Origin: an uncultured Actinomycetota bacterium
GTDB lineage: Bacteria > Actinomycetota > Acidimicrobiia > Spongiisociales > UBA4744
Assembly: GCA_963715305.1 (NCBI GenBank)
Contig: CAVQSB010000019.1
Location: 19,072 to 83,071 of the forward strand
Direction of reading: 5' to 3'
DNA length: 64,000 nucleotides
This document shows, piece after piece, positions 1,196-63,717 of this stretch; position 1 is the first letter of the stretch; each line of letters starts with the position of its first letter. The notes under the pieces are model-generated. The model made no database searches, had not been told where the DNA came from, and worked only from the letters and a program-made list of their open reading frames with translations. The position numbers and the translations under genes are program-made.

Positions 1196-1400
1196 CACGC
1201 TGCCGGACGAGGCACTCGACCACGAGGCGCTTGACCAGGAAGCACCACTCCACGAAGCGCTCGACCACGATTTGCTACTCCACGAAGCGCCGGACCACGA
1301 GGCACTCGACCAGGAAGCACCACTCCACGAAGCGCTGCTCCACGAGGCACCGGTCTAGGTATAACCGTTCCAGTCGCCACCCGACCACGACGCACTCGCC
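1196..1400. repeat. Tandem repeat of about 21 nt with roughly 7-9 degenerate copies (cac(t/g)cgaccacga(g/a)gc(a/g)ct-like); gives heptad-like peptides in several frames
   Basis: Visible periodicity: cactccacgaagcgc recurs three times and cactcgaccacga/cactcgaccagga recur between them. The same translation (RFVEWCFLV...) appears at the C-terminus of ORF 1275..1949 and the N-terminus of ORF 408..1268. Confidence 0.6.
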
Positions 1401-2992
1401 GCGACCAAAGCCGACCACGACGCCCCGTCCCAAGCGGTTCCGAAGATGTCCTGCTCGCCTACCAGAGCAAATACCATTGTCGGCGACGTGACTACTGCCC
1501 CGAGCGGCTTCGAGGGTGCCGGTGCCCGTTGCGGGGGCGAATAGTTGGACGGTCTGGGGAGTGGCAGCGGTCATGATCTTGTCCAGGACCGGCACACCCG
1601 CTCCCTGGCACTGGGTCGAGGCTTTTCTGATGGTGAATGTCGAACCCATCAACAGGGCCTTCACTTGATCCGGCGTGGCGTTCGGCCGCTCGCTGAGGAT
1701 GAGCGCAGCCATTCCGGACACGACGGCGGCCGATTGGCTGGTACCGGAGCCGAGGAAGAGGCGATTTGCCACCCGGGCCTGCGGATAGTTGACGTCCGCG
1801 TTGGAACCAGGAGCCCGGCGGCTGACGATCGACTTACCGGGTACCACGACGTCGACCAACCGATCGGTGGTTCCACAGTTCGAAAAGTCCATCACGGACG
1901 AGATCTTGGTCCGGGTCTTGGCGCTCTCCGAAGCTCCTACGGCAATCACGTAGGGGTCTCATGCGGGATTGCGAAGTGCAAAGCCCTTCCCGTCGTTGCC
2001 GGCGGCGACCACCACCACGATCCCGGCCTTCCAGGCTTGCTCAACCGCGAAGGCTAGGGGGTCGAGCACATAGCTCTGGTTGCCGTCGGTGCCGAACGAC
2101 AGGTTGACGACCCGTATGTTCATCCCGTTGTCGGTGCGGTGCTGTCCCACCCAGTCGATGGCTGCCAGCACCTGCGAAACGTCGGTGGCGCCATTCGAGT
2201 CGGCCACTTTGATGTTCACGATTCGTGATCCGGGGGCAATTCCCATGAAGGCAGCTGTGTTGAGGTTGGTGATCGGGATATCCGTGTCGCGACCGGCGAT
2301 GATCCCGGCCATGTGGGTGCCGTGGCCGAACGTGTCCAGATACCGGAGGTTGTCGGCCTGCGACTCGAAGGAGAGATCGGGTCCGTTGATCACCTTGCCC
2401 GGCTGCGTCAAGCCTTCGACCGGAACAACTCCTGAATCGATGAGAGCGATGTCGATGCCGGCACCCGTATACCCGGCCTTCCAGTACTCGTCGGTCTTCA
2501 CGACTGATTGAGCAACCCGATACATCGAACCTTCAAACGTGTTCGGGTTGTTACTGCTGAGGCCGGTAGCATCTTCCCAACCGGCGGCTTCGAGCCGGAC
2601 GGTGACGTTGGGCGTGACGGCCGCAACATCCTGGCGGCCGGCAATCAGGTCAACGGCGGATGCAGGAACTTCGCCGCAAACCCATCGATGATCTCGTACT
2701 GCTGCGTAACGGAACCGCCCAACTGCGCCACTGCCCGCTCCGGAGCATCGCCGGTGCCCGGTACCTCTCGAACAACGACCGACACCAGCTCGCCGGTCGT
2801 CGCGGTGACGGGAGGAGCCACCACCGCCAATACGAGTAGGGCGGCCATGAGGACAACGGCCAGTCGAATATTTCGCGAAGCAAGGGTCATTTGGTATCTC
2901 CACAGCCGGCCATTGATGAGGTGATCGGCCCTGAGGCAGGAAGCCTGGGAACCAAGCCCGCCGCCCCTATGGGGACTAGTCATGAAACACAA
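1275..2992 (-). pseudogene. Subtilisin-like S8 serine peptidase with signal peptide and I9 propeptide, interrupted by a 1-nt frameshift near 2660 and an in-frame TGA at 1959..1961
   Basis: Signal plus I9-like segment (MTLASRNIRLAVVLMAALLVLAVVAPPVTA ... IIDGFAAK) in one frame. The catalytic Asp/His motifs (DSGV, HGTHMAGI, AAGNDG) are in a second frame. The Ser motif (GTSQSAAVVSGMAAL) follows the in-frame TGA in the same frame. Around 2655 the reverse strand reads ggg ttt gcg gcg aa|g ttc; the expected continuation VPASAVDL needs one extra nucleotide. Confidence 0.65.
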
Positions 2993-3040
2993 TTCAGGTG
3001 GAGCACGGAAGCAGCCCCCCGGCCCGTCGCGTACGATCCA

Positions 3041-4889: not shown

Positions 4890-5484
4890 ATGGAGATCCA
4901 TGCCACTTACGACCATCACACCGCGCTGGTGGTAGTCGATGTTCAGAACGATTTCGCCGACCCGGCCGGGAGTCTGTACGTGCAGAGCGGCGAGCACATC
5001 GTGCCGCTCATCAATGCCGAGGTGGCCCGCGCCCGGGCAGCCGGAGGGTTCGTCGTTTACACCCGCGACTGGCATCCGGAGAGCACCCCCCACTTCGCGA
5101 AGGATGGCGGCGTCTGGCCCGTCCACTGCGTGATGGACTCCTGGGGAGCCGGGTTCTATCCCGAGCTGCTCGTGGACGGGCCTGAGGTGAAAAAGGGATC
5201 TCGAGGCGAAGACGGCTACTCCGGGTTCGCCATGCGAAACCCGGGAACGGACGAGGTCAGTCCCAACCGAGTTGGAGAGCCTGCTTCGTGAGCGGCACAT
5301 AAACCGTCTCGTTGTCGCCGGGCTCGCCACCGACTACTGCGTGAAGGCAACCGCTCTCGACGGCTTGTCCCGAGGCTTCGAAGTGGGATTGCTCACCCGC
5401 GCAGTGCGGCCGGTCGATCTCGAACCGGGCGACGGAATCCGTGCCATCGAAGCGGTGGTGGCCGCCGGAGGGGCCGCGTTGTAG
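4890..5484 (+). pseudogene. pncA: Nicotinamidase/pyrazinamidase (isochorismatase family, PncA-like) with a frameshift near 5265-5280
   Basis: ALVVVDVQNDFADPAGSLYV, YTRDWHPESTPHF and VHCV in frame 1. The C-terminal LVVAGLATDYCV... is in ORF 5272..5484 in another frame. The sequence gtcagtcccaaccgag is where the two frames meet. Confidence 0.6.
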
Positions 5485-6239
5485 TGACCGGAACCGTGGC
5501 GATTCGGGATCTCGAGGCGTTATCGATGCGGGCTCTGCCTGCTCTCGAGACGGAGGACTTCGACGGCTGGGTTCTGCGGGCGGCCGCCGGGTATACCGGT
5601 CGGGCTAACTCAGCCGCTCCTCTCTCCCCGGGGAGTTGGACTCAGCTGAGAAGATCGTGCACACGGAAACCTGGTTCCGGTCACGCGGTCTCACGCCGAT
5701 GGTCCGGCTGACCTTGGCCGCGCAACCCCCCGTCTGGAGTCGCTGCTCGAAGACACGGGGCTACGTGCTCCGGAGATGAAGGCGTGAGTGTTCAGGTTCG
5801 CACGCTCACAGGCACCGGGTCCCCTACGGGCAACGTACCTATTGCCGAAGGACCGCCGCCCGATCACTGGCTCGAGACCCTGGCGGGTTTTCAACCAACC
5901 GTCGGCGAGCATTTCGCAACGGTGCGCACGTTGTTGTCACGGCTCCCCACGACGAGCGCCTTTGCGCTGATCAAACTCGACGAGACTCCTGCGGCGATCG
6001 GGCGGGCAGTCTTCGAGCACGGCCACGTCGGCTTGTTCGACGTGTTCACCCGTCCAGATCTGAGAAACCGCGGCCTGGCAACCGACATCCGGAAGGCGCT
6101 GCTCGGCTGGGGAGCACGGATGGGGGCTTCCCTCGCCTATTTGCAGGTGGTTCCTGCCAACGAAGCGGCCTGCCGCTTGTACGCCGAACTGGGTTTCGAA
6201 GAGGCCTACCGGTACTGGTACCGGGTGGCACCAGCGTGA
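5484..6239 (+). pseudogene. GNAT-family N-acetyltransferase with N-terminal GNAT-like domain, interrupted by at least 3 frame changes (about 5640, 5735, 5783)
   Basis: N-terminal WVLRAAAGYTGRANSA motif, then GELDSAEKIVHTETWFRSRGLTPMVRLTLAAQPP in a second frame, LESLLEDTGLRAPEMKA-stop in a third, then the acetyltransferase core RNRGLATDI...AYLQV...NEAACRLYAELGFEE back in the first frame. Confidence 0.55.
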
Positions 6240-6289: not shown

Positions 6290-7580
6290 TTAAGGTTCAG
6301 ACCCGAATCGAAAAGCCAACCGGCGCCTGGACCCTGGCGCCGCTACGGCACCATCCGCACCATGCGCTCCAGCAGGCGATACGCCTGCTCGCCGGTGTGG
6401 CGGTCCTCGGGCTCCAGCAGATTCGACATCACTTTCAGCACCCACTCCATCAAGGGTTTCGATCGCAAGCCCAACGTGGGCCAGGGTCCACATCACTTGG
6501 GGGTAGCCGATGGCCTTCACGAAGATCCGGGCCATGCGGTAGTACAACCCGTAGGTGTCCTCGAGGTCCTGCGGATACCGCTGGAGCAGGCCGAGGTCGT
6601 CGGAAGCCAGTGCCTGATGGACATGGTCGGCAGCCATTCGTCCGGTCTCGTAGGCATAGGCGATACCTTCGCCGTTCCACGGGTTGATCGCTCCGACGGC
6701 ATCGCCAACCAGGACCCAGTTCGACCCTGCATACGGTCCTACCGAGAGCGCCATGGACAGCTTGCCGCCGCGTGGTTTGGACAGAGCTGCTGCCGGAGAC
6801 AGCTCCCAGTAGTCCGGAGCGCTGTCGACATAGGCCGCCATCATGTCGGACGTGTTGATCGACTTCCACTGGCGGAAGGTTGACAGCAACCCCACTCCGA
6901 CATTCACGGTCCCGTCACCGAGGGGAAAGACCCATCCGTAACCCGGCATCGAATCCCCGTTGGCGTCGCGGATGTCCAGTTGGCTTTCCATGTACGAGTC
7001 GTCGGAACGGGGGCTCGAGAAGTAGCCGCGAGCCGCCATCCCCATCGGGTAGTCACGACGCCGATGCGTGCCCATCGCCCTTCCGAAGCGGGTCATGGAT
7101 CCGTCTGCGACGACAACCACCCGGGGATACAGGGTCTCCTGATCGCCGTTCGTCGATAGGTTGACACCCGCCAGGTGCCCGCCTTCGATCAACGGGAGAC
7201 GCTTCGGTGTGCTGACGCAGCAGGGCGCCCTGTTTCTCGGCCAGGGTTGCCACCCGTCCGTCGAGGTCCAGGCGGCGGATGATGCCGCCCCAGTTCGGGT
7301 AGATCGAATGCTGCGGCCAGTCCAGCTCGATCATCAGGTTGTCCCCGGCGTAGGAGCGAAGGCCGGTGATCTTGTGGAACTCGCCGACGTCGAAATCGAA
7401 CCCCATCTCGCTCAGCTGATAGATGGAGCGAGGGCGTCAGCCCGTCACCGCAGGTCTTCTCGCGCGGGAAACTCTTCTTCTCGACGACGGTGACGGAGTG
7501 CCCATACCTGGCCAACCAGTACGCAGCTGCAGAACCGGCCGGACCAGCCCCAACGACAACGACATCAGGCTGAAGAAGAC
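6290..7580 (-). pseudogene. Geranylgeranyl reductase family FAD-dependent oxidoreductase, split over at least 4 frames
   Basis: MSSSA then DVVVVGAGPAGSAAAYWLARYGHSVTVVEKKSFPREKTCGDGLTP (FAD GxGxxG) near 7580-7400. GFDFDVGEFHKITGLRSYAGDNLMIELDWPQ in ORF 7053..7406. The C-terminal part is in ORF 6290..7192. All are homologous to one protein family. Confidence 0.6.
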
Positions 7581-7689: not shown

Positions 7690-8103
7690 CTACGGAACGA
7701 CCGGGTACCCGTCCTCGTACCAACCCGTGATGCCGGTGGCGACGTTTTCGACCTGGGCGAATCCGAGATCTTCGAACACAGAGAGGGACTGCCCGCTGCG
7801 GTTGCCGCTGTTGCAGTAGACGACGTAGTGCGTGTCCTTGTCCAGCGCATCGAGTTGCTCGCGGAAATCGGCGTCGTAGAAAGTCGATGTTGACGGCTCC
7901 GGCAATCTTCCCGGCGGCGTATTCCTCAGGCGTGCGGATGTCGAGCAGCACAAAATCGGAGTTGTTCGTGTTCTGCTCGATGATGCCTGCCGCGTCGGCC
8001 GGTGAGACGGTCGTGATCTGCTGGTCGACGACGGTGGTCGATGAACAACCGGTCAACCCGGTGAGCACCGCCAGGGAGACGGCCAGGAGACTGGAGATGC
8101 GTT
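7690..8103 (-). pseudogene. Rhodanese-domain lipoprotein (sulfurtransferase-like), frameshift near 7870
   Basis: MKRISSLLAVSLAVLTGLTGCSS lipoprotein start followed by a rhodanese N-part (FVLLDIRTPEEYAAGKIAGAVNIDF) in ORF 7646..8428. Rhodanese active-site part (HYVVYCNSGNRSGQS) in ORF 7690..7953 in another frame. Confidence 0.55.
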
Positions 8104-8224
8104 TCATGGGTTGATCAGTCCTTTCAAGAAGCAGCCGACATGATACCCCCTGGGGTATATACCTTCGTTTTCCAGCCGGATCCTCGTTTTTGGGGTTCCG
8201 GTCGTATCGTATAACGTCCCTCTT

Positions 8225-8862
8225 GTGAAATTGACGCGTATCCCCCGAGCCACCGTTAACCGGCTCCCGCTCTATCTCCGGGCGCTCGACATCATCCCCG
8301 ATGAGCAAATCACCGTCTCGTCGAAAGAACTGGCCGAGCTGATCAAGGAGAACTCCGCCAAAGTTCGCAAGGACCTTTCCTTTCTGGGCACGTACGGTGT
8401 GCGCGGGGTTGGCTACAACGTCGAGCAACTCCGTTTCCAGATCCGCCGCGAACTCGGGTTGACGAGAATCTGGCCCGTGATCATCGTCGGAGCAGGCAAC
8501 CTCGGATCGGCGCTCGCCAAGTACGGAGGTTTCGACGACGAGCGGCTTTGAGATCGTCGGTATCTACGACAATGACCCCGAACTCATCGGCACTACCGTC
8601 GGCGATCTCACGGTCGGCCCTATGGAGGCAATCCAGCACGACGCCAAGCGAATTGCACGTCGAGATCGGAATCATCGCGACCCCGGTGCCGGCCGCCCAG
8701 CACGTCGCCGAACAACTTGCCGCGGCAGGGTTCAAATCGATCCTGAATTTCGCTCCGATGGTGCTGAGGGTGTCCCCGGAAGTCGAGATTCGCCGTGTCG
8801 ATCTATCGACCGAACTCCAGATCCTCGGGTACTACGTTCAACGAGCCCTCGCCGAGGCCTAA
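8225..8862 (+). pseudogene. rex: Redox-sensing transcriptional repressor Rex, two frame changes (about 8545 and 8660)
   Basis: N-terminal winged-helix IPRATVNRLPLYLRAL and Rossmann IIVGAGNLGSALAKYGGF in frame 1. FEIVGIYDNDPELIGTTVGDL in a second frame. The C-terminal EIGIIATPVPAAQHVAEQLAAAGFKSILNFAP...YYVQR is in ORF 8548..8862. Confidence 0.6.
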
Positions 8863-8867
8863 ACCTT

Positions 8868-9217
8868 CTCGCGCTCCTGCTCTTCCTCGAAACGGCTGAG
8901 GGCCGTGAGAAACATCGCGAACAGGATCAGCGACGCCAGCATGAACGTCAGCGGGATGATGCGAATCTCGAAGGCGTTGAGACCTTCGAAATCAGCCGGG
9001 CGGGGCCGCGCGGGGCATAGAGGACGAAGAGCAGACTGTTGATCGAGGTCCAGCCGAAGGTGGCGGCCCCGGTCAGCAGAAAGGCAAGTTTCTTGCCGAG
9101 GTTGGTCCAGTTCAACAGATAGACCGACCCGAAGAACACGACGATGGAAGCCAGCGTCAACAGGATCCCGGTCACCGCCAGGTTGGCCGAAAGAATCTCC
9201 CTGAACAGTTCCCGCAT
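8868..9217 (-). CDS. Small polytopic membrane protein (possibly cytochrome oxidase subunit IV/CtaF-like), one frame change near 9005
   Basis: ORF 8948..9217 gives two TM helices. An alternative frame continues ADFEGLNAFEIRIIPLTFMLASLILFAMFLTALSRFEEEQEREKV-stop. The function is a guess from size, topology and position next to the cytochrome genes. Confidence 0.3.
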
Positions 9218-9218: not shown

Positions 9219-10665
9219 TCAGTCCCCCGTCAGCGTGTCGCCGCGCAGATACTGCACGATCAGTTCCAGGTCATCCAGCGACAGGACCGGCCCGAAGGCA
9301 GGCATGCGTCCTGACCCGACCCCGTTGACCCCGTACGGGACTCCGTTCTCGGAGCCTTTGGTGAGGAACGTGACCATGTCGGCAGGGTTGAGGAATTGCA
9401 CGTTGGGCCGCCCGTCCCACAGAGCAGGTCCGAGGGCTCCCGAGCCGACCGGTTGGGTCAAGGCAACACCGGCCGAATAACCGGCCGTGTGGCACCGGGC
9501 ACAGTAACCGTTGAAGAGGCCGACGGCCCGGGAAGCCCGTTCCGTGTCACCGCCGAAGGTGGCGTCTGCCACGGCCGGGATGTCAATCTCCCACTTTCTG
9601 GTCCTGCTGTGCCTGCTCGAGGAAATCCAGTCCACCGACCGCCTGGGTGAGGAGCTTCTCCTGGTTGTCGGTGGTGACCTGCAGCTTGGTGGCAGCCGAC
9701 TCGAGCGCTGTGACTGCCGTTCTGGCCAGCTCGAGATCATCCTCCCCCGGCGTCGATTGCGGGTTTTCGGCATCGAGCGTGACCGCCAGGGCCGGATTGC
9801 CGAGCACGGTCCCGGCTTCGGCGAGAATCGACTGTCAGCTCCTGTTCGACCCGATCCGGAAGGCCGTCGCCGTCGACGTCGATGCCGTCGCCGGCTGCAT
9901 CCAGGGCATCCGCGGCGCGCCCGGCCAGCGCCTTGGCCGTTCCCACCTGGGACGGCGCCGCCTCGATCGAGGCGACGAGAGCGGTTTGTCTGGCAATGTC
10001 AGTCTTCCAGGAGGGTGTCGGCCGTATCCAACCGGGATAACGCTTCGTTGACCTTCCCCTCGATCTCCAGGAGCGCTTCGTCTTGGGGGATCATGAATTC
10101 CTCGGACTGCAGGTACTCCATCAACTCTTCGATCTGCTGGTCGTTCAGGGGACCACCGCCGTCGAGACCCCAGGCGGGCATCGGCGAATTGGCCCGGCCG
10201 TACACCAGCCAGAACTTGACCTCTTCCGGCGTGTACCGATAGAAGACTGAATTGATGTCCGGAGCCGACCAGGCAACGCTGATACCGCTCCGCTTCTCAA
10301 CGTAGGCAGCAACCCCTCCGCCACCGTCGACACCGTGGCAGGTGCCGCACAGGAATTCCTCGAACAGGTGGGCGCCCCGTTCCAGCGCAACCGCGTCGAA
10401 CTCTTCGACGAACCCCTCCTGGCGGCTCTGCTCACTCACGAAGTAGATGGGCAGCGAGAGCGCCAGGATCCCGGAGAGCACGACGGCGGAAGCCAGCGTC
10501 TTGTCCAGCCGTTTCGACTCGAGCCGGTCGTCGGTTATCCCGGGAGCGAGATTGGGGGCTATCTCTTCTCGGCCGCGGCCTCGCAGGCTGTTGGTACACC
10601 AGAAAGGCCAGCCAGGCGATGGCAGCCAGCGCGGCGACCGTGATGACAATGGTGCTGCTGTCCAC
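9219..10665 (-). pseudogene. Diheme cytochrome c (QcrC-like) with long linker; N-terminal TM plus heme 1 (CGTCHG), linker with several frame changes, heme 2 (CARCHTAGY)
   Basis: CxxCH motifs in ORF 9999..10682 and ORF 9219..9773. The intervening 9580..9999 region is only readable by switching among three overlapping minus-strand ORFs. The N-terminal TM (MDSSTIVITVAALAAIAWLAFLVYQ) is in ORF 10432..10665. Confidence 0.5.
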
Positions 10666-11566
10666 CTATCCCCCGATCGCAACGCAGGAAGGACCCTGCG
10701 GATAGGGAACGGTCTTGACCGAAGCGCGAGCCGGTCTGGATCACGGCGCCGGTGTCGATGATGAGGTGCCCATCCTCGGTGACTTCGATGACGAACCGAT
10801 CGAGGTTGCGGGGGGCCGGGCCACCTTCGTACTCACCGACGAAGTTGTATTTGGAACCATGGCAAGGACATTCAAAACCTTGTGAGGTCGCACACCAGGG
10901 CACCCGGCAGCCCAGGTGCACGCATTTCTGCCATAAGGCCGTGAGCCCTCCGGCGACAACACTCTTTCCTTCGAATTGAACTCCTGCAGCCTCATCGAAG
11001 GGCATGACGTAGGCGCGCGCATCGGGGATGAAGAGGGGCTGCACCGAACCATCCGGCAGGAAGACCTGGGCGCGCACGTCCTCGACCAACCCGGCGTCGA
11101 TCTTGCCGCCAAACCCTCCCGACAGCTTGGGCCAGAAGAAGGCAAGCATCGACAACCCCATCAAGCCCAGATAGCCGCCGAAGGTCGTGAGCAGCGCCCG
11201 GTTGAAGAACTGCCGGCGCGTGACGCCGGCTTCCTCGGGCGAAACCTCGACAACCCGTTGGACCTCGGCGACCGCCACGGCGGCCGATGCGGCGGCTGCA
11301 GCGGCGGGAGCCTCGACAGGTTCTCCAGGCCCTTCGTCGATTTCGTCAAGGCCTTCTTCAACCGGCTGCGGTTCGACCACCGGCGCCGGAGTTATGACCG
11401 GAGCCGACTTCTCCGAGACATCGGCGGCCCGGGTTTCCCTGGAGAGAGCCGACCGCCAGTCCGTTTCTTTCTCCCCGCCGCGCCGGTAGGCGATGGCGAA
11501 CGCCGCCAAGGCCGCCAGAAGGCACACCGCACCAATCGACACAATGAGGATCTGCTGTGTGCTCAT
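10559..11566 (-). CDS. Rieske [2Fe-2S] iron-sulfur subunit of a quinol:cytochrome c reductase (QcrA/PetC-like)
   Basis: Box I CVHLGCRV and box II CPCHGSKY, with an N-terminal TM (MSTQQILIVSIGAVCLLAALAAFAIAY). The C-terminal boundary is uncertain because the ORF runs on without a stop into the qcrC-like start. Confidence 0.7.
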   Translation of the reverse strand: MSTQQILIVSIGAVCLLAALAAFAIAYRRGGEKETDWRSALSRETRAADVSEKSAPVITPAPVVEPQPVEEGLDEIDEGPGEPVEAPAAAAAASAAVAVAEVQRVVEVSPEEAGVTRRQFFNRALLTTFGGYLGLMGLSMLAFFWPKLSGGFGGKIDAGLVEDVRAQVFLPDGSVQPLFIPDARAYVMPFDEAAGVQFEGKSVVAGGLTALWQKCVHLGCRVPWCATSQGFECPCHGSKYNFVGEYEGGPAPRNLDRFVIEVTEDGHLIIDTGAVIQTGSRFGQDRSLSAGSFLRCDRGIGGQQHHCHHGRRAGCHRLAGLSGVPTACEAAAEKR

Positions 11567-26366: not shown

Positions 26367-26389
26367 GTCGTGCCTTCGAAAGCGAAGAG

Positions 26390-30958: not shown

Positions 30959-30979
30959 GATTTGCGAAGGTACATTGTG

Positions 30980-50389: not shown

Positions 50390-51389
50390 AGGGCGTACTG
50401 CTGCCAGCGCCAGGTGTCGGCGCACATCTCGTCGATGGTCCGCCCGGCTCGCCACCCCAGCTCTCGTTCCGCTTTCGAAACATCGGCCCAGGTCTCGGCC
50501 ACGTCGCCCGTCCGCCGGTCGACCAACCGGTACGGGATGTCCTGGCCGGTTGTCTCGCTGAAAGCGGCGATGACTTCGAGGACGCTGGTGCCGTGCCCGG
50601 TGCCGAGGTTCCAGATGTGAAGGCCCGGTTCGGTTGCCAGCCGGTTGAGGGCGGCCAGATGGCCAACGGCGAGGTCGACCACGTGGATGTAGTCGCGCAC
50701 ACCCGAGCCGTCCCGGGTCGGGTAGTCGGTTCCGTAGACCTTGACTTCGGGAAGTTTCCCGGCGGCCACCTGCGCAACGATGGGCATCAGGTTGTTGGGG
50801 ATGTCGTTGGGATCCTCCCCGATCAGGCCGCTCTGCGTGGGCCCCGACCGGGTTGAAGTAGCGGAGCAGGGCAACGTTCCAGCGCGGGTCCGAGATGTGC
50901 AGGTCGGTGAGGATCTGTTCGATGACCTGCTTGGTTCCCGCCGTAGGGATTGGTGGCCGGTTTGGTCGGCATGTCTTCGGTGACCGGGACCACATCCGGA
51001 TCGCCGTACACCGTGGCCGAAGAGCTGAAGACGACGGTTCGCACGTCGTGGCGGTCGAGTACCCGGAACAGCGTGGTCGAGCCGCCCACGTTGGCGTCCC
51101 AGTAGTCGAGCGGGCGTTCCACGCTCACCCCGACCGCTTTCAACCCGGCGAAGTGGATGACCGCCTCGAACCCGCCCCCTCCCACGATGCGGTCCAAGGC
51201 CGCCTCGTCCCGGATGTCCGCCTCGTGGAATTCGAGTGCCCTGCCTGCGATCTGCGCGACCCGATCGAGGACCGACCGTTTCGAGTTGACGAGATTGTCG
51301 ACGATCACGACATCGTGACCGGCCTCGATCAGCTCGACGACGGTGTGGCTGCCGATGAACCCGGTTCCCCCGGTGACCAGAACTCGCAT
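50390..51389 (-). pseudogene. galE: UDP-glucose 4-epimerase GalE, 2 frame changes (about 50990, 50860)
   Basis: MRVLVTGGTGFIGSHTVVELIEAGHDVVIVDNL in ORF 50823..51485. GTKQVIEQILTDLHISDPRWNVALLRYFNPVGAH in ORF 50267..50995. The C-terminal part (IHVVDLAVGHLAAL...LGTGHGTSVLEVI) is in the 50374.. frame. Confidence 0.7.
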
Positions 51390-51439
51390 GCGGCGAGAGG
51401 ATACGGCATCGGGAGAGCGGCCGCCGGTAGGCGTATCGC

Positions 51440-52220: not shown

Positions 52221-52324
52221 TGGTGGCCACGTCATCATCATGCCAGCAGGCTCCTAAGATTCCCGGCTCTCCCCAGGAACCCTCCATAACCACCGACGCT
52301 CCAACATCAACCAGCAACCGGCTC

Positions 52325-53170
52325 ATGATTGTTCTGGCGCAGCTGGCGGTCTACGTGATCTGGGGCTCCACCTACCTCGCCCTCCGCTACATGGTCGAGG
52401 GCTTTCCACCCTTCCTCGGTAACGCCATCCGGATGCTGATGGCCGGGGCCATCCTGTATGTGTGGCTGCATGTCCGGGGGAAGGCCGCCCCCACGATGCG
52501 CCAGTGGCGGAACGGGTTCTTCGTCGGTTCGCTGCTCTTTGTTGGCGGACTCGGGTTGGTCACCACGGCGGAAGGGATGGGGGTCGGGTCGGGGCTGGCC
52601 GCCACGGCCGTCGGTATGACCCCGGTCTGGGCGGCCGTCGTCTCCGGCTTCTTCGACAGGTGGCCGACCAGGATCGAATGGGTCGGTCTGATCATCGGCA
52701 TCGTCGGGGTGGTGATCCTGTCACAGGAGGGCGACTTCGATGCCCTGCCCCTCGGGCTCTTCCTCCTGATCCTGGCCCCGCTGCTGTGGGCCATTGCTTC
52801 GGTGTGGTCCAACCACATCAATCTGCCGACCGGTTCGATGTCGACCGCGGTGCAGATGCTGGGTGGTGGTCTGGCCCTTGTGCCTGGCCGGCGCAGTGGC
52901 CGGTGAAAGCATCACGGCCGCCCCCAGCGCGAGAGCCTGGTGGGCCCTCGTCTACCTGATCGGGCCAGGATCACTGATCGCTTTCAGTGCCTATGCCTAC
53001 CTGTTGCGGACGGTGCGCCCGGTGCTGGCCACCAGCTACGCCTACGTCAACCCGGTGGTAGCGGTGGCGCTGGGCGTGACGCTTGGGCAAGGAAACGCTC
53101 ACCGGCGAAACCTGGATCGCCCTCCCGCTCATCCTGGGAGCGGTAGCGCTGATCGCCCGCGGCCGCAGCT
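52325..53170 (+). pseudogene. EamA/DMT-family transporter, 2 frame changes (about 52870, 53095)
   Basis: MIVLAQLAVYVIWGSTYLALRYMV... in the first EamA domain. The second EamA domain (ALVYLIGPGSLIAFSAYAYLL...SYAYVNPVVAVALGV) is in ORF 52794.. and the C-terminus in a third frame. Confidence 0.55.
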
Positions 53171-54886: not shown

Positions 54887-55369
54887 TTACCGAGCGGTGC
54901 AACCCGGTTCGTTGATTACCCGGTTTAGGTCACAAACGACTTGTAGACGGCCCAGGTTGGATCGGTCTTGGCGATCACGTGGACCTGGTGGGTGGTCACG
55001 GAAGCCTGCATCGCCTCGTGAAAGGCCTCCGAGCCACGCACTCGAATGGCTGTACAGCACGAACTCCCGCATCCCGCCGGTCGTGATCACTCCGGCCAGA
55101 ACGCTCCGCTTGTCGGCCTTCCGCAGGACCGTCGCCTCGATCTTCCCGAGCTGTTCATCTTCGTCGGGCGTCGGGAACCCTTCCGGAGTGGGATCGTTCA
55201 GGTGGATCGCCACCCCAACCTGTATCGAGTACCGCCCAATCAGCTGCTCGGCACTGGTATCAAACCGGGCAATCAGCGGCTTCTCGTCATACGTCCCGGA
55301 AACAATCATCCAAGACCCCTCGAACGTCACCTCCCGATGCGCCCTTCTCCGAAAAAAGGCCATACCCAA
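54887..55369 (-). CDS. DUF695-like protein (C-terminal part possibly frame-changed)
   Basis: KPLIARFDTSAEQLIGRYSIQVGVAIHLNDPTPEGFPTPDEDEQLGKIE resembles DUF695 N-terminal signatures (from memory). Confidence 0.35.
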   Translation of the reverse strand: MGMAFFRRRAHREVTFEGSWMIVSGTYDEKPLIARFDTSAEQLIGRYSIQVGVAIHLNDPTPEGFPTPDEDEQLGKIEATVLRKADKRSVLAGVITTGGMREFVLYSHSSAWLGGLSRGDAGFRDHPPGPRDRQDRSNLGRLQVVCDLNRVINEPGCTAR

Positions 55370-55379: not shown

Positions 55380-56365
55380 GTCGAGCCTCAGCCTCTCCCG
55401 CCGGGCATCCTGCCTCCCCTGCTTGCGGGGGAGGCGCGACGCCGCCAAAGGCGGCGGCGCGGAGGGGGAGGAGCGAAGCGAGCAGGCGTGGCAGCCACCA
55501 CGCGACAGAGCCCTTCCACCCTCCTCCTAACCCCCCTCCCGCCAGCAGGAGGGGGAAAGGAAAAGCCCCCCATTCTTGCCTCGCCCGCTGGCGGGAGAGG
55601 CGCGGCGCCGCCAAAGGCGGCGACGCGGAGAGGGTGGAGCGAAGCGACAGGGAGGAAGCCACCGCCACGAGCAAAGCGAGCGAAGAGGCCGGGCCCAACC
55701 GCGCCAGCAGACCGATCAAGGGTCTTGAACCCGGCCGGGTCCTGCGATACGACAGTCACCATGGCAACCGACCGAGACCCCTGGCTGATCGTCCGGGCGA
55801 AGCAACTGCGCACCAACCAAACCAGTGCCGAGACCGTCTTGTGACATCAGGTGCGAGCCCGGCGCTTGGCCGGGTTTCGCTTCCGGCGGCAACACCCGAT
55901 CGGTCGCGTACGTGGTCGATTTCGTCTGCCTCGAAGCCCGCCTGGTGATCGAGGTGGACGGCCCCACCCACGAAGACCCGCAGCCGGGACGAACGACGAG
56001 ACCAGAACCTCGCCTCCCGTGGCTACGCGACCCTCCGCTTCTGGAACGAAGACGTCTACGACAACCTCGACGGAGTCATCGAAACCATCCTCAACACCCT
56101 CGTTCCACCCTCCCCCTAACCCCCTCCCGCCAGCAGGAGGGGGAAAGCAACGCACCCCGTCCCAGCCTTTCCCGCAGCCATTCTTGCCTCTCCTGCTCGC
56201 GGGGGAGGCGCGCGGCACCACCGGCGGCGGCGCGGAGGGGGAGGAGCGAAGCGAGAGGCGCGTAGCCGCCGAAGGCGGCGAAGCGGAGAGGGTGGCAGCG
56301 ACCACGGGACAGGGCCCTTCCACCCTCCCCCTAACCCCCTCCCGCCAGCAGGAGGGGGAAAAAGA
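55380..56365. repeat. GC-rich palindromic repeat cluster: three copies of ccttccaccctcc(t/c)cctaacccc(c)ctcccgccagcaggagggggaaa (about 55511-55560, 56098-56147, 56316-56365) plus two to three copies of a gcgggggaggcgcg.cgccgccaaaggcggcggcgcggagggggaggagcgaagcgag module, flanking a coding remnant
   Basis: Direct visual repeat detection. Each unit holds hairpins (ccccctcc-N8-ggaggggg; cgccgcc-aaa-ggcggcg). Spacing is irregular, so it is not CRISPR-like. Confidence 0.6.
55752..56120 (+). pseudogene. DUF559 (Vsr-like PD-(D/E)XK endonuclease-domain) gene with a TGG-to-TGA nonsense codon in the conserved LW motif and 2 frameshifts
   Basis: MATDRDPWLIVRAKQLRTNQTSAETVL-TGA-HQVRARRLAGFRFRRQHPIGR | YVVDFVCLEARLVIEVDGPTHEDPQ | RDQNLASRGYATLRFWNEDVYDNLDGVIETILNTLVPPSP-stop. 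This matches the DUF559 consensus aErlLWrhLR...FRRQhpig.yivDF.c...rLviEvDG...D..L...G..vlRf.n.dv (from memory). The stop codon lies inside a repeat unit. Confidence 0.55.
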
Positions 56366-56368: not shown

Positions 56369-57904
56369 TCAACCGCCTTGCGCCTCGAACATCGCCCGTA
56401 GCGTGTCGACCGTGTCGGCCTCTTCGGCGGTCTTGTCGTCCCGGTACCCCTTGACCCGGGCGAAGCGGAGCGCCATGCCGCCCGGGTAGCGGGACGAGGC
56501 CTGGATACCGTCGAAGGCGATCTCCACCACCTGCTCGGGTCGCACGAAGACCACGTGCCCTTCCCGGTGGGTCTCCAGTTCCAGGAACCGCTCCGTCTGC
56601 CACTCGAGCACCTTGTCGGTCAGGCCCTTGAAGGTCTTGCCGAGCATCACGAACCCCCCGGTGGCAGGATCACGGGCCCCGAGGTGGAGGTTGCTCAACC
56701 AGCCCCGGCGTCGCCCGCTCCCCCACTCGACGGCCAGCACCACCAGGTCGAGGGTGTGGACGGGTTTCACCTTCAGCCATCCCGATCCCCGCCGGCCCGC
56801 CTCGTAGGGGGCGGTGAGGCTCTTGACCATCACCCCTTCGTGACCGTGCTGCCAGGGCTTCCCGGAAGAAGGCCTCGCCGGTCCCGGCATCGTCGACGAC
56901 CAGGCGCGGCACTCGCATCGACGGCGGGCACGGCCTGTCTCCAATGCGATCACCCGTTCGGTGGCGGGAAGGTCGATCAGGTCGGCACCGTCCAGGTGCA
57001 GACAATCGAAGAAGAACGGGCTCAGCGGGAGCCCGGCGGCCATCTCGGCCGGGTTCACCTTGGTCCCGAACCGGCTCATCGTCACCTGGAACGGGTGGGG
57101 TCGTCCGTCCTCTCGCAGGGCGATCACCTCGCCGTCCAGCACGATCGAGTCCACCGCGAGGTTCTCCAACTCGGCCACCACCTCGGGAAGACGATCGGTG
57201 ATGTCGGCCAGGTTGCGGGTGAAGATCCGTACCACACTCCCGTGCCGGTGCGCCTGGATGCGGGCCCCGTCGATCTTCCACTCGACGGCCGCCGGCGAGA
57301 ACGACTCCAATGCGGCCGTGACGCTTTCCGCCGTTTGCGCCAGCATGGGGAGCAGGGGCCGCAGCACCTCCAGACCGACTGCCTCAAGCGCGGCACTGCC
57401 TCCGGTCAGGGCGCGGTGCGCGACCACCCGCAGATCACCGCGGAACAACGCGGCCCGGCGCACCAGGGCGGATGGGACACCCGCTGCCCGGGCAATCGCC
57501 TCGACCATGATGCCTTCCGAGGCGCCTTGCCGGAGGTCCCCGAGGATGAGCCGAACGAGGAACTGCTGTTCGGACTCTGAAACCGCTCCGAACAGCTCGT
57601 CGAGCAGGCGGCGCCGCTCAGCTTGCGAGCCGGGCCCGGCGGTAGAACCGATCTCCGTGAGGAGCCGATCGGCGGCCAGGAGCGACAGGTCCCCCTCCGC
57701 AACCGGTGGGGCCAGTTCCCGCAGCGACGCGTACCCGACGCCGATGGTGCCCTGACGGAGCACACCGGTCAGGAAGCCGACCCCAACTTCGATCTCATCG
57801 TGGTCGAGCTTGCCGAGCAAACCTGCCAGCAGTTCGATCTTGGCCAGGCGCTTGGAGGTTGCGGCGACCTGTTCTGAGGTGATGACGACTTCTCGGAGGA
57901 GCAC
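56369..57904 (-). CDS. ATP-dependent DNA ligase (bacterial LigB/LigC-type)
   Basis: 511-aa intact ORF. KxDG adenylation motif (EWKIDGARIQAH), then OB domain and conserved C-terminal motifs. Confidence 0.8.
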   Translation of the reverse strand: MLLREVVITSEQVAATSKRLAKIELLAGLLGKLDHDEIEVGVGFLTGVLRQGTIGVGYASLRELAPPVAEGDLSLLAADRLLTEIGSTAGPGSQAERRRLLDELFGAVSESEQQFLVRLILGDLRQGASEGIMVEAIARAAGVPSALVRRAALFRGDLRVVAHRALTGGSAALEAVGLEVLRPLLPMLAQTAESVTAALESFSPAAVEWKIDGARIQAHRHGSVVRIFTRNLADITDRLPEVVAELENLAVDSIVLDGEVIALREDGRPHPFQVTMSRFGTKVNPAEMAAGLPLSPFFFDCLHLDGADLIDLPATERVIALETGRARRRCECRAWSSTMPGPARPSSGKPWQHGHEGVMVKSLTAPYEAGRRGSGWLKVKPVHTLDLVVLAVEWGSGRRRGWLSNLHLGARDPATGGFVMLGKTFKGLTDKVLEWQTERFLELETHREGHVVFVRPEQVVEIAFDGIQASSRYPGGMALRFARVKGYRDDKTAEEADTVDTLRAMFEAQGG

Positions 57905-58179: not shown

Positions 58180-58816
58180 TCACTTCTCCGTGGTGGAACC
58201 ATCCATTATGGGTCTATTTCGGGCCGGCGCGTCGCCCTCGACCGGTTCGGGTTTGATGCCGAGCGCCTCCAGGACCGGCATGAGCGCTTCGATCGGCAGG
58301 CCGGCCACGTTGCTCCGGGAGCCGTCGACGGCGGTGATGAACCGGCTCGCTTCTCCCTGGATTCCGTAGCCGCCGGCCTTGTCGAGCGGTTCGCCGGTGG
58401 CGCTGTAGGCGGCCGCTTCCGCCTCCGTTATCGGTCTCATCGTCACCCGGGATTCCTCGATCCCGGTGTGTTCGCTTCCCCGGCCAACCAGGGCGTATCC
58501 CGAATAGACCAGGTGGGTGCGCTCGGACAGCAGCAACAGCATCTCGACGGCCCCGGCTTCATCGGCCGGTTTGCCGAGGATCCGATCATCGACGGCGACG
58601 ACGGTATCGACGCCCAGCACCACCCGGTCCCGGCCGACCCGGCCCGCCACCTCCCGCGCTTTCTCCATGGCCAGGCGGACCGCCATCTGCCGGGGACCTT
58701 CCCCCGCCTGTTCGATCTCCTCGATGTCGGACGGGATGACCTCCAGGGCATACCCGGCGCCGGTCAGCATCTGGTCGCCGGCGGGGCGATCCGCTGGCCA
58801 GAACGAGGGTCGGGGT
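58180..58816 (-). pseudogene. maf: Maf-like nucleoside triphosphate pyrophosphatase, frame change right after the N-terminal SGSPRRR motif (about 58765)
   Basis: MTPTLVLASGSPRRR in ORF 58586..58903, then LLTGAGYALEVIPSDIEE...VVLGVDTVVAVDDRILGKP...GYGIQ in ORF 58180..58770. Confidence 0.6.
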
Positions 58817-58901
58817 CATAGTCACCGGGACATTATGGCGTTGGGTCACTACGATTCCGCCGCCGGGAAACCGGATCCAGGGACATCGAGAGGACATCAG
58901 C

Positions 58902-59867: not shown

Positions 59868-61315
59868 GTGAAGAAGCTGACCCTCATCCTGGCCATGGCC
59901 CTGCTGGCGAGCGCCTGTTCGTTGTTCGTCGTCGAAGACGGAAGCTCGGACTTCCCGAACACCACCGAAGCTTCCACCACGACCACCACCCTGGCGCCCA
60001 CCACCACCGTGCGTGGCCGGGCTGCCGGTCGAGCTGACCGACTGCAGCAACCCGCCGGAGGGTTTCGACGCCCTGTGCGACGCCTACCGCCTGCTGGAGG
60101 ACCACTACGTCGACCCCCTCGACGATGCCGCCCTGGCCGCCGGAGCCGCCCGGGGAATGGAAGAGTTCGAGTCGGAGACCCCCGGAACGGCCGTCACCGC
60201 GATGGGGTGTCCTGTGCGCTCCCGACCGCCGCCTTTGAGGACACCTGCACGGGTCTACGCCGAGGTCCAGGCGGAGACCCCCGCCCCGCCCGTCGATCTG
60301 GTCGAAGCGGCCGTCCGGGGCATGATCCAGTACGGCCTCGAGGATCCGCACACCGTGTACCTGTCGCCCGAGGCGCTGGTCAACGTCACCGCGGACATGT
60401 CCGGTGAAGTGTCTGGCATCGGGGCCCTGGTACGGGGCGAAGACCAGACCACCGAGGACGCCGAGAACTGTTCGGTCCTGTCGGACACCTGCATCCTCAC
60501 CATCGTCGACACCCTCGCCGACAGCCCCGCCAAGGCCGCCGGCGTGCAAGCCGGCGACGGCATCGTGACGGTGGACGGACAAGACGTCGACGGCCTCACG
60601 GTCGACGAGGTGGTCGCCATCGTGCGCGGCCCCGAGGGCACCGACGTGGCGCTCGGGCTGCTCCGGGACGGCCAGGTCATCGCGGTCGTGATCACCCGGG
60701 CCGCGGTGGTGGTGCCGGTGGTGGCCTCGGAGATGATCGAACCCGGCATCGGCTACGTGGCGCTCAGCCAGTTCACCAACAACAGCGCCGAACAGGTCCA
60801 CGAAGCCCTGGTGACCCTCATCGCCGACGGAGCCGACCGCCTCATCTTCGACCTGCGCAACGACCCGGGCGGGTCGCTGACCGCCTCGGTCCGGATCGCC
60901 AGCGAGTTCCTCGCCGACGGGATGGTGCTCCGTACGCAGTCGCCCGTCCGACACCCGCGAGTATTCGGTCGAGCCGGGCGGGGCTGCCACCGATCCGAAC
61001 CTCGAGATCGTGGTGCTGGTCAACCGGGGCAGCGCCTCGGCGTCCGAACTGGTTTCGGCGGTGCTGCAGGAGCGGGGCCGGGCCACCATTATCGGCGAAC
61101 CGACCTTCGGCAAGAACACCGTGCAGCAGCGGTTCGAGATGTCCAACGGCGGAGCCCTCAACGTCTCGATCGCCCGGTGGGTCACTCCGGAAGGCCGCGA
61201 CTCGGGGACGTTCGGAGTCCAACCGGACATCGAACCCGAAATCCCCGAAGACGCAACCACCGACGTGGTCCTCGAGTTCGCGGTTGAGTTTCTGCGGGGC
61301 GGAACCGCCACCTAG
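59868..61315 (+). pseudogene. S41 C-terminal processing peptidase (CtpA-like) lipoprotein with PDZ domain, at least 3 frame changes (about 60000, 60210, 60950)
   Basis: Lipobox VKKLTLILAMALLASACS. PDZ GIGALV...GDGIVTVDGQDV. S41 catalytic region LIFDLRNDPGGSL in ORF 60013... C-terminal RGSASASELVSAVLQERGRATIIGEPTFGK in ORF 61010..61315. Confidence 0.6.
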
Positions 61316-61351: not shown

Positions 61352-61860
61352 ATGATTCCTGATGTCGAGCGGCGCCGGACCTTCGCGACAGTCGTCGATG
61401 AGGTCTATGAGCCGCTGCAGCGCTACCTGCGCCGGCGCGCCACCATCGACGACGCCGACGAGCTGCTCGACGACGTCCTGCTGACCGTCTGGCGCCGCCT
61501 GCCGGACGTTCCCGAAGGGGCCGCCCTCCCCTGGTGTTACGGGGTGGCCCGCCGGGCGCTCGCCAACCAGCGCCGCGGTCAGCATCGGCGGCTCAATCTG
61601 GTCGCCCGCCTGGCCGCCCAGCCGCTCGCCGCCCGTTGACGAAACGGGGCCGGCGAATACCCGGAGCTGGCCGCCGCTTTGAGCCAACTGCCCGAGGCGG
61701 ACCGCGAGGTGTTGCGGTTGTGGGCGTGGGAGCAGCTGGAACCCCGCGAGATGGCGGTGGTGCTGAATTCCACCCCCAACGCCGTCAGCCTGCGCCTCTC
61801 CCGGGCGAAGAAGAAAGCTGGCGCACCATCTGCGAACGACAGGATCCGGTCGATGCCGGA
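61352..61860 (+). pseudogene. ECF-type sigma-70 family factor, frame changes near 61630 and 61815
   Basis: Region 2 (DDADELLDDVLLTVWRRL) in ORF 61352... Region 4 (EADREVLRLWAWEQLEPREMAVVLNSTPNAVSLRLSRAKKK) in ORF 61679... Confidence 0.55.
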
Positions 61861-61895
61861 CACAAGGGGAGCAGAGACACCGGAGAGCACCGATC

Positions 61896-62490
61896 ATGAA
61901 CGACGATTTGCGCACCAACCTGAGCCGACTGGACCCGATGCACTCCGGCGTCCCGACCGAATCCCCGACGACTCCGTCGTCCCGAAACAGATTGGAGCGT
62001 GTCATGTCCACCAACCTTCGTGAACAGCAGTCCCGGGAGCGGCCCCGCCGCCAGCCCTGGATCATCGCGGCTGCGTCGGTCGCCGCCGCCTCGCTGGCCA
62101 TCGTCGGTGTCCTGTCCCTGACCGGCAACCCCGGCCCTTCCGGACCTCCGCTGACCTTGTCGCTCGGCGAGGGCGACGCCATGTCGTCGTGCCTACCCTT
62201 CGAGGTCGGCATCCTCGCCGGTATGCCGATGGCGTTCGAGGGGACGGCCACGGCCGTCGACGGCGACCGGGTCACCCTGACCGTCGACCACTGGTACACG
62301 GGCGGCGACGCCGCAGAGGTTTCCCTCACCGGCCCGGCCGGTCTGGAAGCCCTGATCGGCGGCATCACCTTCGAAGCCGGGCGGCCAGTACCTGATCACC
62401 GCCGAGAGCGGCAACGTCAACTACTGCGGCTACAGCGGAGAGGCCACCGCCGACATGCGGGCCGCCTTCGACCAGGCATTCGGAGGCTGA
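61896..62490 (+). pseudogene. Anti-sigma-factor-like single-pass membrane protein, frame change near 62385
   Basis: Lies immediately downstream of the ECF sigma gene. Single TM (PWIIAAASVAAASLAIVGVL). The extracytoplasmic domain continues in another frame to QYLITAESGNVNYCGYSGEATADMRAAFDQAFGG. Confidence 0.4.
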
Positions 62491-62575
62491 AATGTGCGCC
62501 CGGCCGGGGCTGGTTGTGTGCCGACCAGCCCGGCCGGCACACAACTAGCCTCTGGTGTGTACTCGAGGAGACGCT

Positions 62576-63717
62576 ATGGACTTCGCACCTTTGCCCGAAC
62601 ACGAAGCCTTTCGCAGGGTCGTCCGGGAGTTTGCCGAAGCGGAGATAGCACCTCACGCCGCGGAGTGGGACCGGACCCGCACGTTCCCGCTCGAGGCCGT
62701 CCGCAAGATGGGCGACCTGGGCCTGTTCGGTCTGCCCTTCCCGGAGGAATTCGGGGGATCGGGCGCCGACTTCATGACCCTGTGCATCGCCATCGAGGAA
62801 CTGGCCCGGGTCGATCAGTCCGTGGCGCTCACCCTGGAGGCCGGGGTCGGCCTCGGCGCCAACCCGATCTACCAGTTCGGCACCGACGAGCAACGCCAAC
62901 GGTGGCTGCCCGATCTGGCCGCCGGACGGACCCTGGCCGGGTTCGGACTCACCGAGGCGGAGGCCGGCTCCGACGCCGGCGCGACCCGCACCAGAGCCGA
63001 ATTGGACGGGGACTCCTGGGTCATCAACGGTTCCAAGGCGTTCATCACCAACTCGGGGACGCCCATCACGTCGCTGGTCATCGTCACCGCCCGTACCGGG
63101 ACCCGACGAGATCAGCGCCATCATCGTCCCGGCCGGCACGGACGGGTTCACGGTCGAACCGGCCTACCGGAAGATGGGTTGGCACGCTTCGGACACCCAC
63201 GGGTTGGTGTTCGAGGACTGCCGGGTGCCGGCCGACCATCTCCTCGGCGAGCGCGGCCAGGGGTTCCGCCAGTTCCTGTCCATCCTCGACGACGGCCGGG
63301 TCGCGATCGCCGCCCTGGCCGTCGGGGTGGCCCAGGCGTGCCTCGACCACAGCGTGGCCTATGCGACCGAGCGGGCCACGTTCGGCCGTCCCGATCGGCA
63401 GCAACCAGGCGATCGCCTTCAAGTGCGCGGACATGGAGGTGGCCGTCAACGCGGCCCGCCTGCTCACCTACCGGGCAGCCTGGCTCAAGGACCAGGACCA
63501 GCCCTTCAAACAGGCCGCCGCCATCGCCAAGGTCTACGCCACCGAAGCCGCCGTCACCGCCACCCGCGAAGCCGTCCAGATCTTCGGCGGCGCCGGCTTC
63601 CTCGACGAGACCCCGGTGGCCCGCCACTACCGCGACGCCAAAGTCCTCGAAATCGGCGAAGGCACCTCCGAAATCCAACGCCTCGTCATCAGCCGCGGCC
63701 TGGGGTTACCGATCTAG
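62576..63717 (+). pseudogene. Acyl-CoA dehydrogenase, at least 2 frame changes (about 63095, 63400)
   Basis: N-domain MDFAPLPEHEAFRRVVREFAEAEIAPHAAEWD...GSDAG in ORF 62555... The middle and C-domain (FGGAGFLDETPVARHYRDAKVLEIGEGTSEIQRLVISR) are in ORFs 63174.. and 62494... Confidence 0.7.

Follow-up and report, generated by a model that had tools for sequence, protein, structure and literature searches.

Mass pseudogenisation is known from reductive genome evolution, for example in Mycobacterium leprae and in recently host-restricted symbionts. Spontaneous indels of bacteria are described as deletion-biased and slippage-prone. A technical source of broken genes has also been described: residual indels in Nanopore-only assemblies and MAGs lead to truncated and fragmented gene calls, an IDEEL-type problem (Sereika et al. 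2022, PMC9262707; MFD-LR catalogue, PMC12313526). For R10.4 assemblies, a depth of about 40x is needed for freedom from frameshifting indels (PMC9262707). The Microflora Danica long-read catalogue is Nanopore-only; its assembly used metaFlye with a single round of Medaka (PMC12313526).

Here, we analysed a 64,000-nt stretch of DNA from an Acidimicrobiia bacterium (the window), in which a sequence-only reading had reported about half of the genes, at least 25, to be broken and had favoured reductive decay, its alternative being a long-read or MAG assembly of uneven quality. The extent of the breakage was confirmed and the lower bound exceeded. Frameshift-aware protein-to-DNA alignment, with intact, gene-called orthologues from clean relatives as references, pinned 74 lesions, mostly single extra bases, in 39 of the 69 genes. 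The interpretation was reversed, in that private lesions, retained selection and gene-blind scatter favour the assembly alternative. The broken genes are very probably residual consensus errors of a low, uneven-depth, long-read-only MAG without short-read polishing, and the genes of the organism are most likely actually intact. Under this explanation, the effective sequencing depth of the source organism would have been low and uneven, in a long-read-only assembly, most probably Nanopore with Flye and Medaka and no short-read polishing. The consensus would then retain, at about 1.2 to 1.4 per kb, isolated surplus bases together with a few that are missing or wrong; every gene hit even once would read as frameshifted, and regional clustering may come from low depth, co-occurring strains or both.

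Insertions account for 63 of the 74 lesions (85% of the spectrum): 57 are single extra bases and 6 are double ones. The other lesions are 8 deletions and 3 in-frame stops. A frame-aware Viterbi segmentation of the window yielded dozens of same-strand frame switches, and Pfam domains are continuous over the frame junctions of the subtilisin S8, rhodanese, geranylgeranyl reductase, Rex, qcrC, ferredoxin and ABC ATPase genes, as well as those of COX1 (3 junctions), AAC(3), GT4/mshA, asparaginase II, AsnA, kbl, galE, FeoB, EamA, S41, acyl-CoA dehydrogenase and DUF695. Scans of the window for tRNAs and Rfam families found nothing.

Numerous genes carry one extra base. These are isochorismatase/pncA (4890..5472, plus strand; G at 5260), rhodanese (7693..8107, minus; A at 7882), the 4Fe-4S ferredoxin (13792..14242, minus; G at 13976), the ABC-2 permease and ABC ATPase pair (14981..16642, minus), with a T at 15916 in the ATPase and, in the permease, a questionable -1 at 15612, L-asparaginase II (27276..28218, minus; C at 27777), a ThiS/MoaD-domain protein (29935..30937, minus; C at 30793), a GntR regulator (30975..31352, plus; +1 at about 31115), kbl, the 2-amino-3-ketobutyrate CoA ligase (36672..37854, minus; T at 37665), an SH3-domain protein (45400..46144, minus; C at 45709), the membrane part of FeoB (47111..48818, minus; G at 48317), FeoA (49321..49561, minus; G at 49534), a DUF695 protein (54928..55363, minus; G at 55031) and Maf (58210..58825, minus; C at 58776). 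In the Rieske subunit (10669..11566, minus), an A inserted at 10729 puts a different C-terminus on the protein, and the ORF runs on to 10559.

Two extra bases are found in the Rex redox repressor (8255..8859, plus; A at 8538 and 8646), the mshA-like GT4 glycosyltransferase (25153..26366, minus; 25551 and 26185), AsnA aspartate-ammonia ligase (33408..34537, plus; A at 33927 and G at 34015), the galE epimerase (50377..51410, minus; T at 50834 and 50935), acyl-CoA dehydrogenase (62576..63714, plus; +1 at about 63098 and about 63390) and the EamA transporter (52319..53163, plus; +1 at about 52884 and about 53084, according to the frame map and Pfam only). Geranylgeranyl reductase (6346..7569, minus) has extra bases at 6469, about 7190 and 7431; the qcrC-like dihaem cytochrome c (9222..10665, minus) at 9594, 9832, 10002 and 10595; the COX1/ccoN-like oxidase subunit I (17193..18647, plus) at 17631, 17817 and 18352; and the S41 C-terminal processing protease (59868..61309, plus) at 60011, 60196, 60200, 60250 and 60945. 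The FixO/ccoO-like and ccoP-like cytochromes (18643..20442, plus) combine extra bases at 18927, 18985, 19053, 19571 and 19840 with one missing near 19338. The densest cluster, nine events with 11 extra bases in 0.9 kb, occupies a FemAB-like Acetyltransf_6 gene (26366..27279, minus) that the frame map scored as non-coding. Neither this cluster nor the Rieske +1 figured in the gene list of the sequence-only reading.

Missing bases were located in a hypothetical 119-aa gene (8862..9217, minus; near 9001-9008), in the short hypothetical gene hyp76 (16857..17053, plus; at 17037), in a GNAT acetyltransferase (5502..6233, plus; -1 near 5625, with an extra G at 5773), whose N-terminal half aligns poorly, and near the C-terminus of an NfeD-like protein (32660..33230, minus; -1 at 32767, with extra bases at 32698 and 32701). 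For the aminoglycoside N-acetyltransferase AAC(3) (20500..21264, plus), the relatives have no orthologue, and its -1 shift was placed at about 20885 by the frame map alone. A CAP-domain protein (24139..24775, plus) contains a 7-bp insertion at 24720, near its C-terminus, which may be natural variation.

The two substitution lesions claimed earlier are real, although stops make up just 3 of the 74 lesions. One is a TCA to TGA change at 1961 in subtilisin (Peptidase_S8; 1293..2890, minus), where three relatives keep TCA. This gene also misses one base near 2671-2674; further subtilisin events at 1470, 1494 and 1778 are common to relatives or C-terminal and were left out of the count. The other is a TGG to TGA change at about 55852 in a Vsr-like DUF559 remnant (55845..56116, plus), which also has +1 shifts at about 55905 and about 55981. 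The third stop, at 61637, belongs to the ECF sigma factor and its downstream 197-aa gene (61361..62487, plus; extra bases at 61817, 61834 and 62386) and arises from an insertion at 61635 and a deletion at 61645, 10 nt apart.

Lesions are absent from 30 of the 69 genes: nrdJ (40672..44094, plus), tdh, flotillin (Band_7; 31361..32644, minus) and about 27 others. The sequence-only reading had therefore been right to call these three uninterrupted, but not the ATP-dependent DNA ligase (56369..57904, minus). The ligase ORF is open, yet two insertions that offset each other, near 56850 and 56937 and amounting to three extra bases, leave the roughly 30 codons between them (near 56850-56940) out of frame.

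The ORFs of the window have exact counterparts in a public protein collection, where all belong to one unannotated NCBI+ENA contig of 149,324 bp. The nearest relatives of the window are Microflora Danica long-read MAGs, and the closest, with ~95% nucleotide identity, is ERZ25039508 contig_16425 (MFD03551.bin.1.83, Nanopore), hereafter the sister. Nearly every protein-level +1 corresponds to a 1-bp insertion that is absent from the sister and from more distant intact relatives. The comparison with a related genome, which had been suggested as a check, thus showed the lesions to be private and not inherited, with the exception of DUF559, the only gene broken in both genomes, which is truncated in the sister too and may be a true pseudogene. 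The sister breaks other genes: the ligase (6 events), flotillin (3 private 1-bp insertions), the cytochrome b region, Maf, ABC genes, qcrC, geranylgeranyl reductase and others, and leaves COX1, asparaginase, S41, rex, rhodanese and the FemAB-like gene intact. No lesion recurs at homologous positions of the two, the residues and genes affected being different, and their lesion densities do not covary as expected under essentiality (rho 0.20, P = 0.33). Genes broken in the window are all intact in short-read relatives and in other Nanopore MAGs from the same pipeline.

Measured throughout with the same reference proteins, the event rate is 1.39 per kb in the window, 0.6 to 2.6 per kb in the sister contig and 4.1 per kb in contig_73695, a third strain from the sister's sample, compared with 0.11 and 0.17 per kb in two other Nanopore MAGs and 0 to 0.29 per kb in short-read contigs. 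The same signature in sister contigs of a Nanopore-only assembly, together with the private, indel-dominated, insertion-biased character of the lesions, their blindness to gene identity and the lack of relaxed selection, supports consensus error.

The error-rich sequences, however, are all three members of one species-level lineage (the window, contig_16425 and contig_73695), whereas contig_33718 and contig_16466, from the same sample and pipeline as the latter two, are clean, and this could point to a lineage-specific cause. Lineage-specific DNA modification or high strain microdiversity, rather than low depth alone, might have provoked spurious Nanopore insertions. Two strains with 4.3% mismatches do co-occur in one sample, both genomes share the same odd insertion signature away from homopolymers, and lesion density increases with local divergence from the sister, a weak correlation (rho 0.45, P = 0.02) that also sits uneasily with simple consensus error. 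Nevertheless, no k-mer or motif was convincingly enriched at the insertion sites, and the lesions of the two genomes do not recur at homologous positions; we consider such a trigger very improbable. The idea that the inserted base is the alternative allele of a neighbouring site, as mixed strains would suggest, found no support with the relatives at hand: this held at 2 of 44 sites vs 7.3% in controls. A hand check found the inserted base beside its transition partner in 64% of cases vs about 56% expected, which is not meaningful. In the third strain from this assembly (L161), deletions predominate, so that the pipeline does not leave one uniform error spectrum, a further point against simple consensus error.

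The signature itself departs from the classical Nanopore one, and together with the lack of an explaining motif this counts against consensus error. Of 56 inserted bases in the window, 79% have no adjacent identical base, compared with a null of 53.5%, and the sister behaves in the same way (76% of 38); a concentration of indels in homopolymers was found in neither. The extra bases could be real or biologically caused, either through an insertion-biased, non-slippage mutation process outpacing substitutions or through DNA modification of the lineage causing spurious Nanopore insertions; we regard this as very improbable. Among 246 indels between the window and the sister, 192 are of 1 bp, 30 of 2 bp and 9 of 3 bp; since about 90% of the sequence is coding, the scarcity of 3-bp indels indicates that selection filters substitutions, not indels.

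Genuine reductive decay, in which non-essential genes are lost by frameshift or nonsense and essential ones such as nrdJ are kept by selection, is very improbable. Several observations fit it: the lesions are truly present in the deposited sequence, there are three in-frame stops, two of them single-base substitutions and the third lying between an insertion and a deletion, the damage extends to all three sequences of the species-level lineage but spares other relatives, and DUF559 is broken in both sister genomes. The lesions are also over-dispersed along the window (index 2.55 in 2-kb bins, P = 5e-5), as had been argued when random indels were held unable to give the pattern. The longest lesion-free gap spans 8,044 nt, from 37665 to 45709 (P = 0.006), and encloses nrdJ; no other gene free of lesions is as large (P = 0.015 if lesions were scattered uniformly). 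Such regional clustering, with a stretch cleaner than uniform scatter would leave, counts against consensus error too. The second half of that argument did not stand: gene-blind scatter of 74 lesions is expected to leave 29.6 ± 2.8 genes untouched, and 30 were observed. Nor did the proposed check on essentiality reveal any sparing of core functions. The Rieske, qcrC, COX1, ccoO/ccoP-like, mshA-like and ligase genes are damaged, and the clean genes include many hypothetical or accessory ones. With core genes damaged, the clusters of the sister lying elsewhere and the count of intact genes equal to the random expectation, the uneven spread is not explained by essentiality.

The broken genes are still under purifying selection. 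In the comparison of window and sister, genes intact in both have a dN/dS of 0.109, those broken in the window alone 0.139 and those broken in the sister alone 0.154, with pooled values over the broken classes of 0.14 to 0.20. The marginal rise in broken genes (0.14 vs 0.11) would suit decay and speaks slightly against consensus error. However, the FemAB-like gene retains a dN/dS of 0.19 despite its nine lesions, COX1 and geranylgeranyl reductase have values of 0.07 and 0.066, and amino-acid identity to outgroup orthologues is equal for broken and intact copies. An insertion-dominated spectrum lying mostly outside homopolymers is likewise the opposite of what spontaneous indels lead one to expect, nonsense changes are few, and the Pfam hits of the window include no transposase or IS expansion. 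The decay reading favoured at first thus fails because the lesions are private, the relatives intact, purifying selection kept, the spectrum one of insertions and the number of intact genes random. Programmed frameshifting or recoding was rejected, the 74 sites having no common context, as was in-silico corruption of the window, the lesion-bearing ORFs being present in public records, e.g. the 335-aa Rieske call P0243.

As biology, this fragment of a soil Acidimicrobiia genome is ordinary, and its value lies in a caution about gene calls in long-read MAGs. If the lesions are consensus errors, more than half of the genes would be misrepresented in gene calls, pseudogene counts, completeness estimates and metabolic reconstructions, both for the MAG of the window and for MFD03551.bin.1.83, which is included in the one-genome-per-species GTDB collection, and a genome-decay story built on either would be spurious. 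The insertion-biased, non-homopolymer signature is relevant to the polishing and quality checking of long-read MAGs. As the ligase demonstrates, neither an open ORF nor a homopolymer-centred check guarantees correctness.

Compared with reductive evolution of the Mycobacterium leprae type, the window has the same many frameshifted or stop-bearing genes beside intact neighbours, but its lesions are unshared by close relatives, dN/dS is not relaxed, the bias is towards insertion rather than deletion, nonsense is almost lacking, core functions are not spared and IS elements have not proliferated. The classical homopolymer indels of Nanopore data differ in another respect, as the errors of the window, presumably itself from a long-read-only assembly, are mostly insertions and avoid homopolymers. 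With the residual indels of Nanopore-only assemblies, the window shares private single-base indels that break ORFs at about 1 per kb, the absence of its lesions from short-read relatives and from same-pipeline Nanopore MAGs, and intact signatures of selection.

Same-strand frame switches occur by the dozen in a 3-periodic Markov/Viterbi frame map of the window, and the segments could be joined, with Pfam domains running unbroken over the junctions in about twenty families. Lesions (frameshifts and in-frame stops) were located with a frameshift-aware protein-to-DNA aligner written for this analysis, with gene-called intact orthologues of clean relatives as queries. These relatives are L162 (contig_33718, from the same Nanopore assembly as the contig_16425 described below), L166, L167 and L168, which are short-read-style judging by how their records and contigs are named (an NCBI MAG scaffold, a k141 contig and a JGI contig, respectively), and L054. 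For kbl, the 2-amino-3-ketobutyrate CoA ligase gene, the aligner gave the site 37665, in agreement with nucleotide comparison. The final count, without events common to relatives or inside N- or C-terminal extensions, is 74 lesions spread over 39 of the 69 genes (57 "+1", 6 "+2", 8 "-1" and 3 in-frame stops), which confirms the sequence-only reading that about half of the recognisable genes are broken. At least two substitution lesions had been claimed, and both are real, TCA to TGA at 1961 and TGG to TGA near 55852. The DNA ligase, considered uninterrupted in the same reading, is indeed an open frame, yet compensating insertions put the ~30 codons between them out of frame; in the correct frame these codons read "...PSMRVPRLVVDDAGTGEAFFREAL...", matching homologues. 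The Rieske ORF is 352 aa long, compared with ~294 aa in all homologues, because of a +1 near the gene end, and nine events were found in a FemAB-like gene (26366-27279) that had not been listed as broken.

The window has a G+C content of 64%. Its ORFs match entries of a public protein collection exactly, and all of these belong to a single unannotated NCBI and ENA contig of 149,324 bp. Scans of the whole window for tRNAs and Rfam families returned no features; this includes the segment ahead of the B12-dependent nrdJ (40350-40700), where neither a cobalamin riboswitch nor any further Rfam family was detected. The nrdJ protein matched Acidimicrobiia MAGs only, the closest being CAVRAP010000005.1, with 94-96% nucleotide identity to the window. 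This record is ENA ERZ25039508 contig_16425, that is, MFD03551.bin.1.83, a Microflora Danica (MFD) long-read MAG; the 92-kb contig was compared via four overlapping pieces (L163, L164, L035 and L165) that together extend from 601 to 62490 of the window. The lineage is represented by a third sequence, contig_73695 (L161), which comes from the sample of this sister contig and shows 4.3% mismatches to it.

Nearly all protein-level "+1" events fall within a few bases of a 1-bp window insertion relative to the sister contig, and the extra bases are also absent from more distant intact relatives. The sister contig has lesions of its own, which affect different residues and different genes (6 in the ligase, 3 in flotillin, 2 in Maf, and others in the ABC genes, qcrC, the geranylgeranyl reductase (GGR) gene and the cytochrome b region), and is unbroken in COX1, asparaginase II, S41, rex, rhodanese and the FemAB-like gene; such non-matching breakage of the two contigs speaks against inherited decay. 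Against identical reference proteins, the event rate is 1.39 per kb for the window and 4.1 per kb for contig_73695, which is worse than the sister contig, compared with 0.11 and 0.17 per kb for two other Nanopore MAGs (L001 and L003) and 0 to 0.29 per kb, the range taken as method noise, for contigs classed as short-read or other.

Several other differences from the sister genome were observed. A gene for an aminoglycoside N-acetyltransferase of the AAC(3) type (20495-21309; Pfam Antibiotic_NAT, E = 4e-84) is missing from the sister, where only 448 nt separate the flanking genes, and is a strain-level difference in gene content. Identity to the sister genome drops to 75% in the paired genes for the ABC ATPase and the ABC-2 permease (14992-16736), versus ~94% in the flanks, and dS there is about 0.9 to 1.15 versus ~0.17 elsewhere; such divergence suggests that recombination has replaced the allele. 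An 85-bp segment of the window (16736-16821) corresponds in the sister genome to an insertion of 2.2 kb (L163 2023-3153) that includes a gene for a DUF222/HNH endonuclease. The alignment to the sister genome is interrupted at 55400-56370, where the DUF559 remnant is flanked by a GC-rich repeat unit of ~165 nt in three to four copies. A hairpin-forming 25-mer, CCCCTCCCGCCAGCAGGAGGGGGAA, is part of every unit (three exact occurrences versus 0 expected by chance), and the repeats resemble REP or MITE elements. DUF559, broken in both sister genomes and sitting among these repeats, may be the sole real pseudogene. Cytochrome b (11566-13773) is encoded by separate N-terminal (13003-13773) and C-terminal (11566-12300) genes, with ~700 nt lacking a gene call between them in both the window and the clean relative L162.

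Uniform scatter of the 74 lesions would leave 29.6 ± 2.8 of the 69 genes untouched, and 30 were observed (P = 0.52). Among those hit are core respiratory genes (Rieske, qcrC, COX1, ccoO/P-like), mshA-like, asnA, kbl, galE and the ligase, and those spared are mainly accessory or hypothetical, so the proposal that essential genes were spared does not hold. The companion claim of non-uniformity stands: regional density is non-random (dispersion index 2.55, P = 5e-5), with a lesion-free stretch of 8,044 nt from 37665 to 45709 (P = 0.006), an unbroken nrdJ (P = 0.015) and the heavily hit FemAB-like gene (P = 0.018). The clusters do not coincide between the window and the sister genome (rho 0.20, P = 0.33) and are therefore a local feature of each assembly rather than a reflection of gene dispensability. 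Regions more diverged from the sister genome tend modestly towards a higher lesion density (rho 0.45, P = 0.02), a trend that local depth or mixing of strains could produce.

In codon alignments of the window and the sister contig, pooled per gene class, dN/dS was 0.109 for genes intact in both genomes, 0.139 for those broken in the window only, 0.154 in the sister only and 0.196 in both. Genes with many lesions still have the values of functional genes (FemAB-like 0.19, COX1 0.07, GGR 0.066), and broken and intact copies are equally similar to outgroup orthologues (COX1 0.85/0.85, FemAB-like 0.73/0.71, ligase 0.79/0.78). The two genomes differ by 246 indels, 192 of them of 1 bp, 30 of 2 bp and only 9 of 3 bp; therefore, protein-level selection filtered substitutions and did not filter indels at all, as expected of non-biological indels.

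The long-read MAGs of Microflora Danica were built from Nanopore data alone, with metaFlye assembly and one Medaka round and without short reads, and their authors remarked on low coding density in those of lower coverage (PMC12313526). In work of the same group, a depth of about 40x was required for R10.4 assemblies without gene-fragmenting indels (PMC9262707). We infer that the window itself belongs to such a MAG, because its relatives are MFD MAGs, it shares its error signature with contig_16425 and the record pattern is alike (NCBI and ENA, without protein accessions or names). Given private lesions, the lack of relaxed selection and this technical context, an uneven-quality long-read MAG assembly, the fallback of the sequence-only reading, is very probably the best explanation of the broken genes.

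Insertion events number 63 in the window versus 8 deletions. Among nucleotide-resolved sites, 44 of 56 inserted bases (79%) have no identical neighbour, compared with 53.5% for random insertions, and private insertions of the sister contig are alike (29/38, 76%). The avoidance of homopolymers is thus seen in two independent assemblies, and contig_73695, which belongs to the assembly of the sister contig, is deletion-dominated. That the errors were set off by a lineage-specific biological trigger appears very unlikely. A motif search at the insertion sites found none enriched, and the inserted bases tested negative as duplicated strain alleles. Genuine genome decay, favoured initially, is also very unlikely, as lesions are private, dN/dS is not relaxed and the scatter is blind to genes. 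In bacteria, spontaneous indels are more often deletions and fall mainly in runs, and real pseudogene sets contain many nonsense mutations; here, the nonsense share is 3 of 74 lesions. The non-homopolymer insertion signature counts against the preferred assembly-error reading: the classical signature of Nanopore sequencing is homopolymer error, whereas the insertions in the window instead avoid homopolymers.
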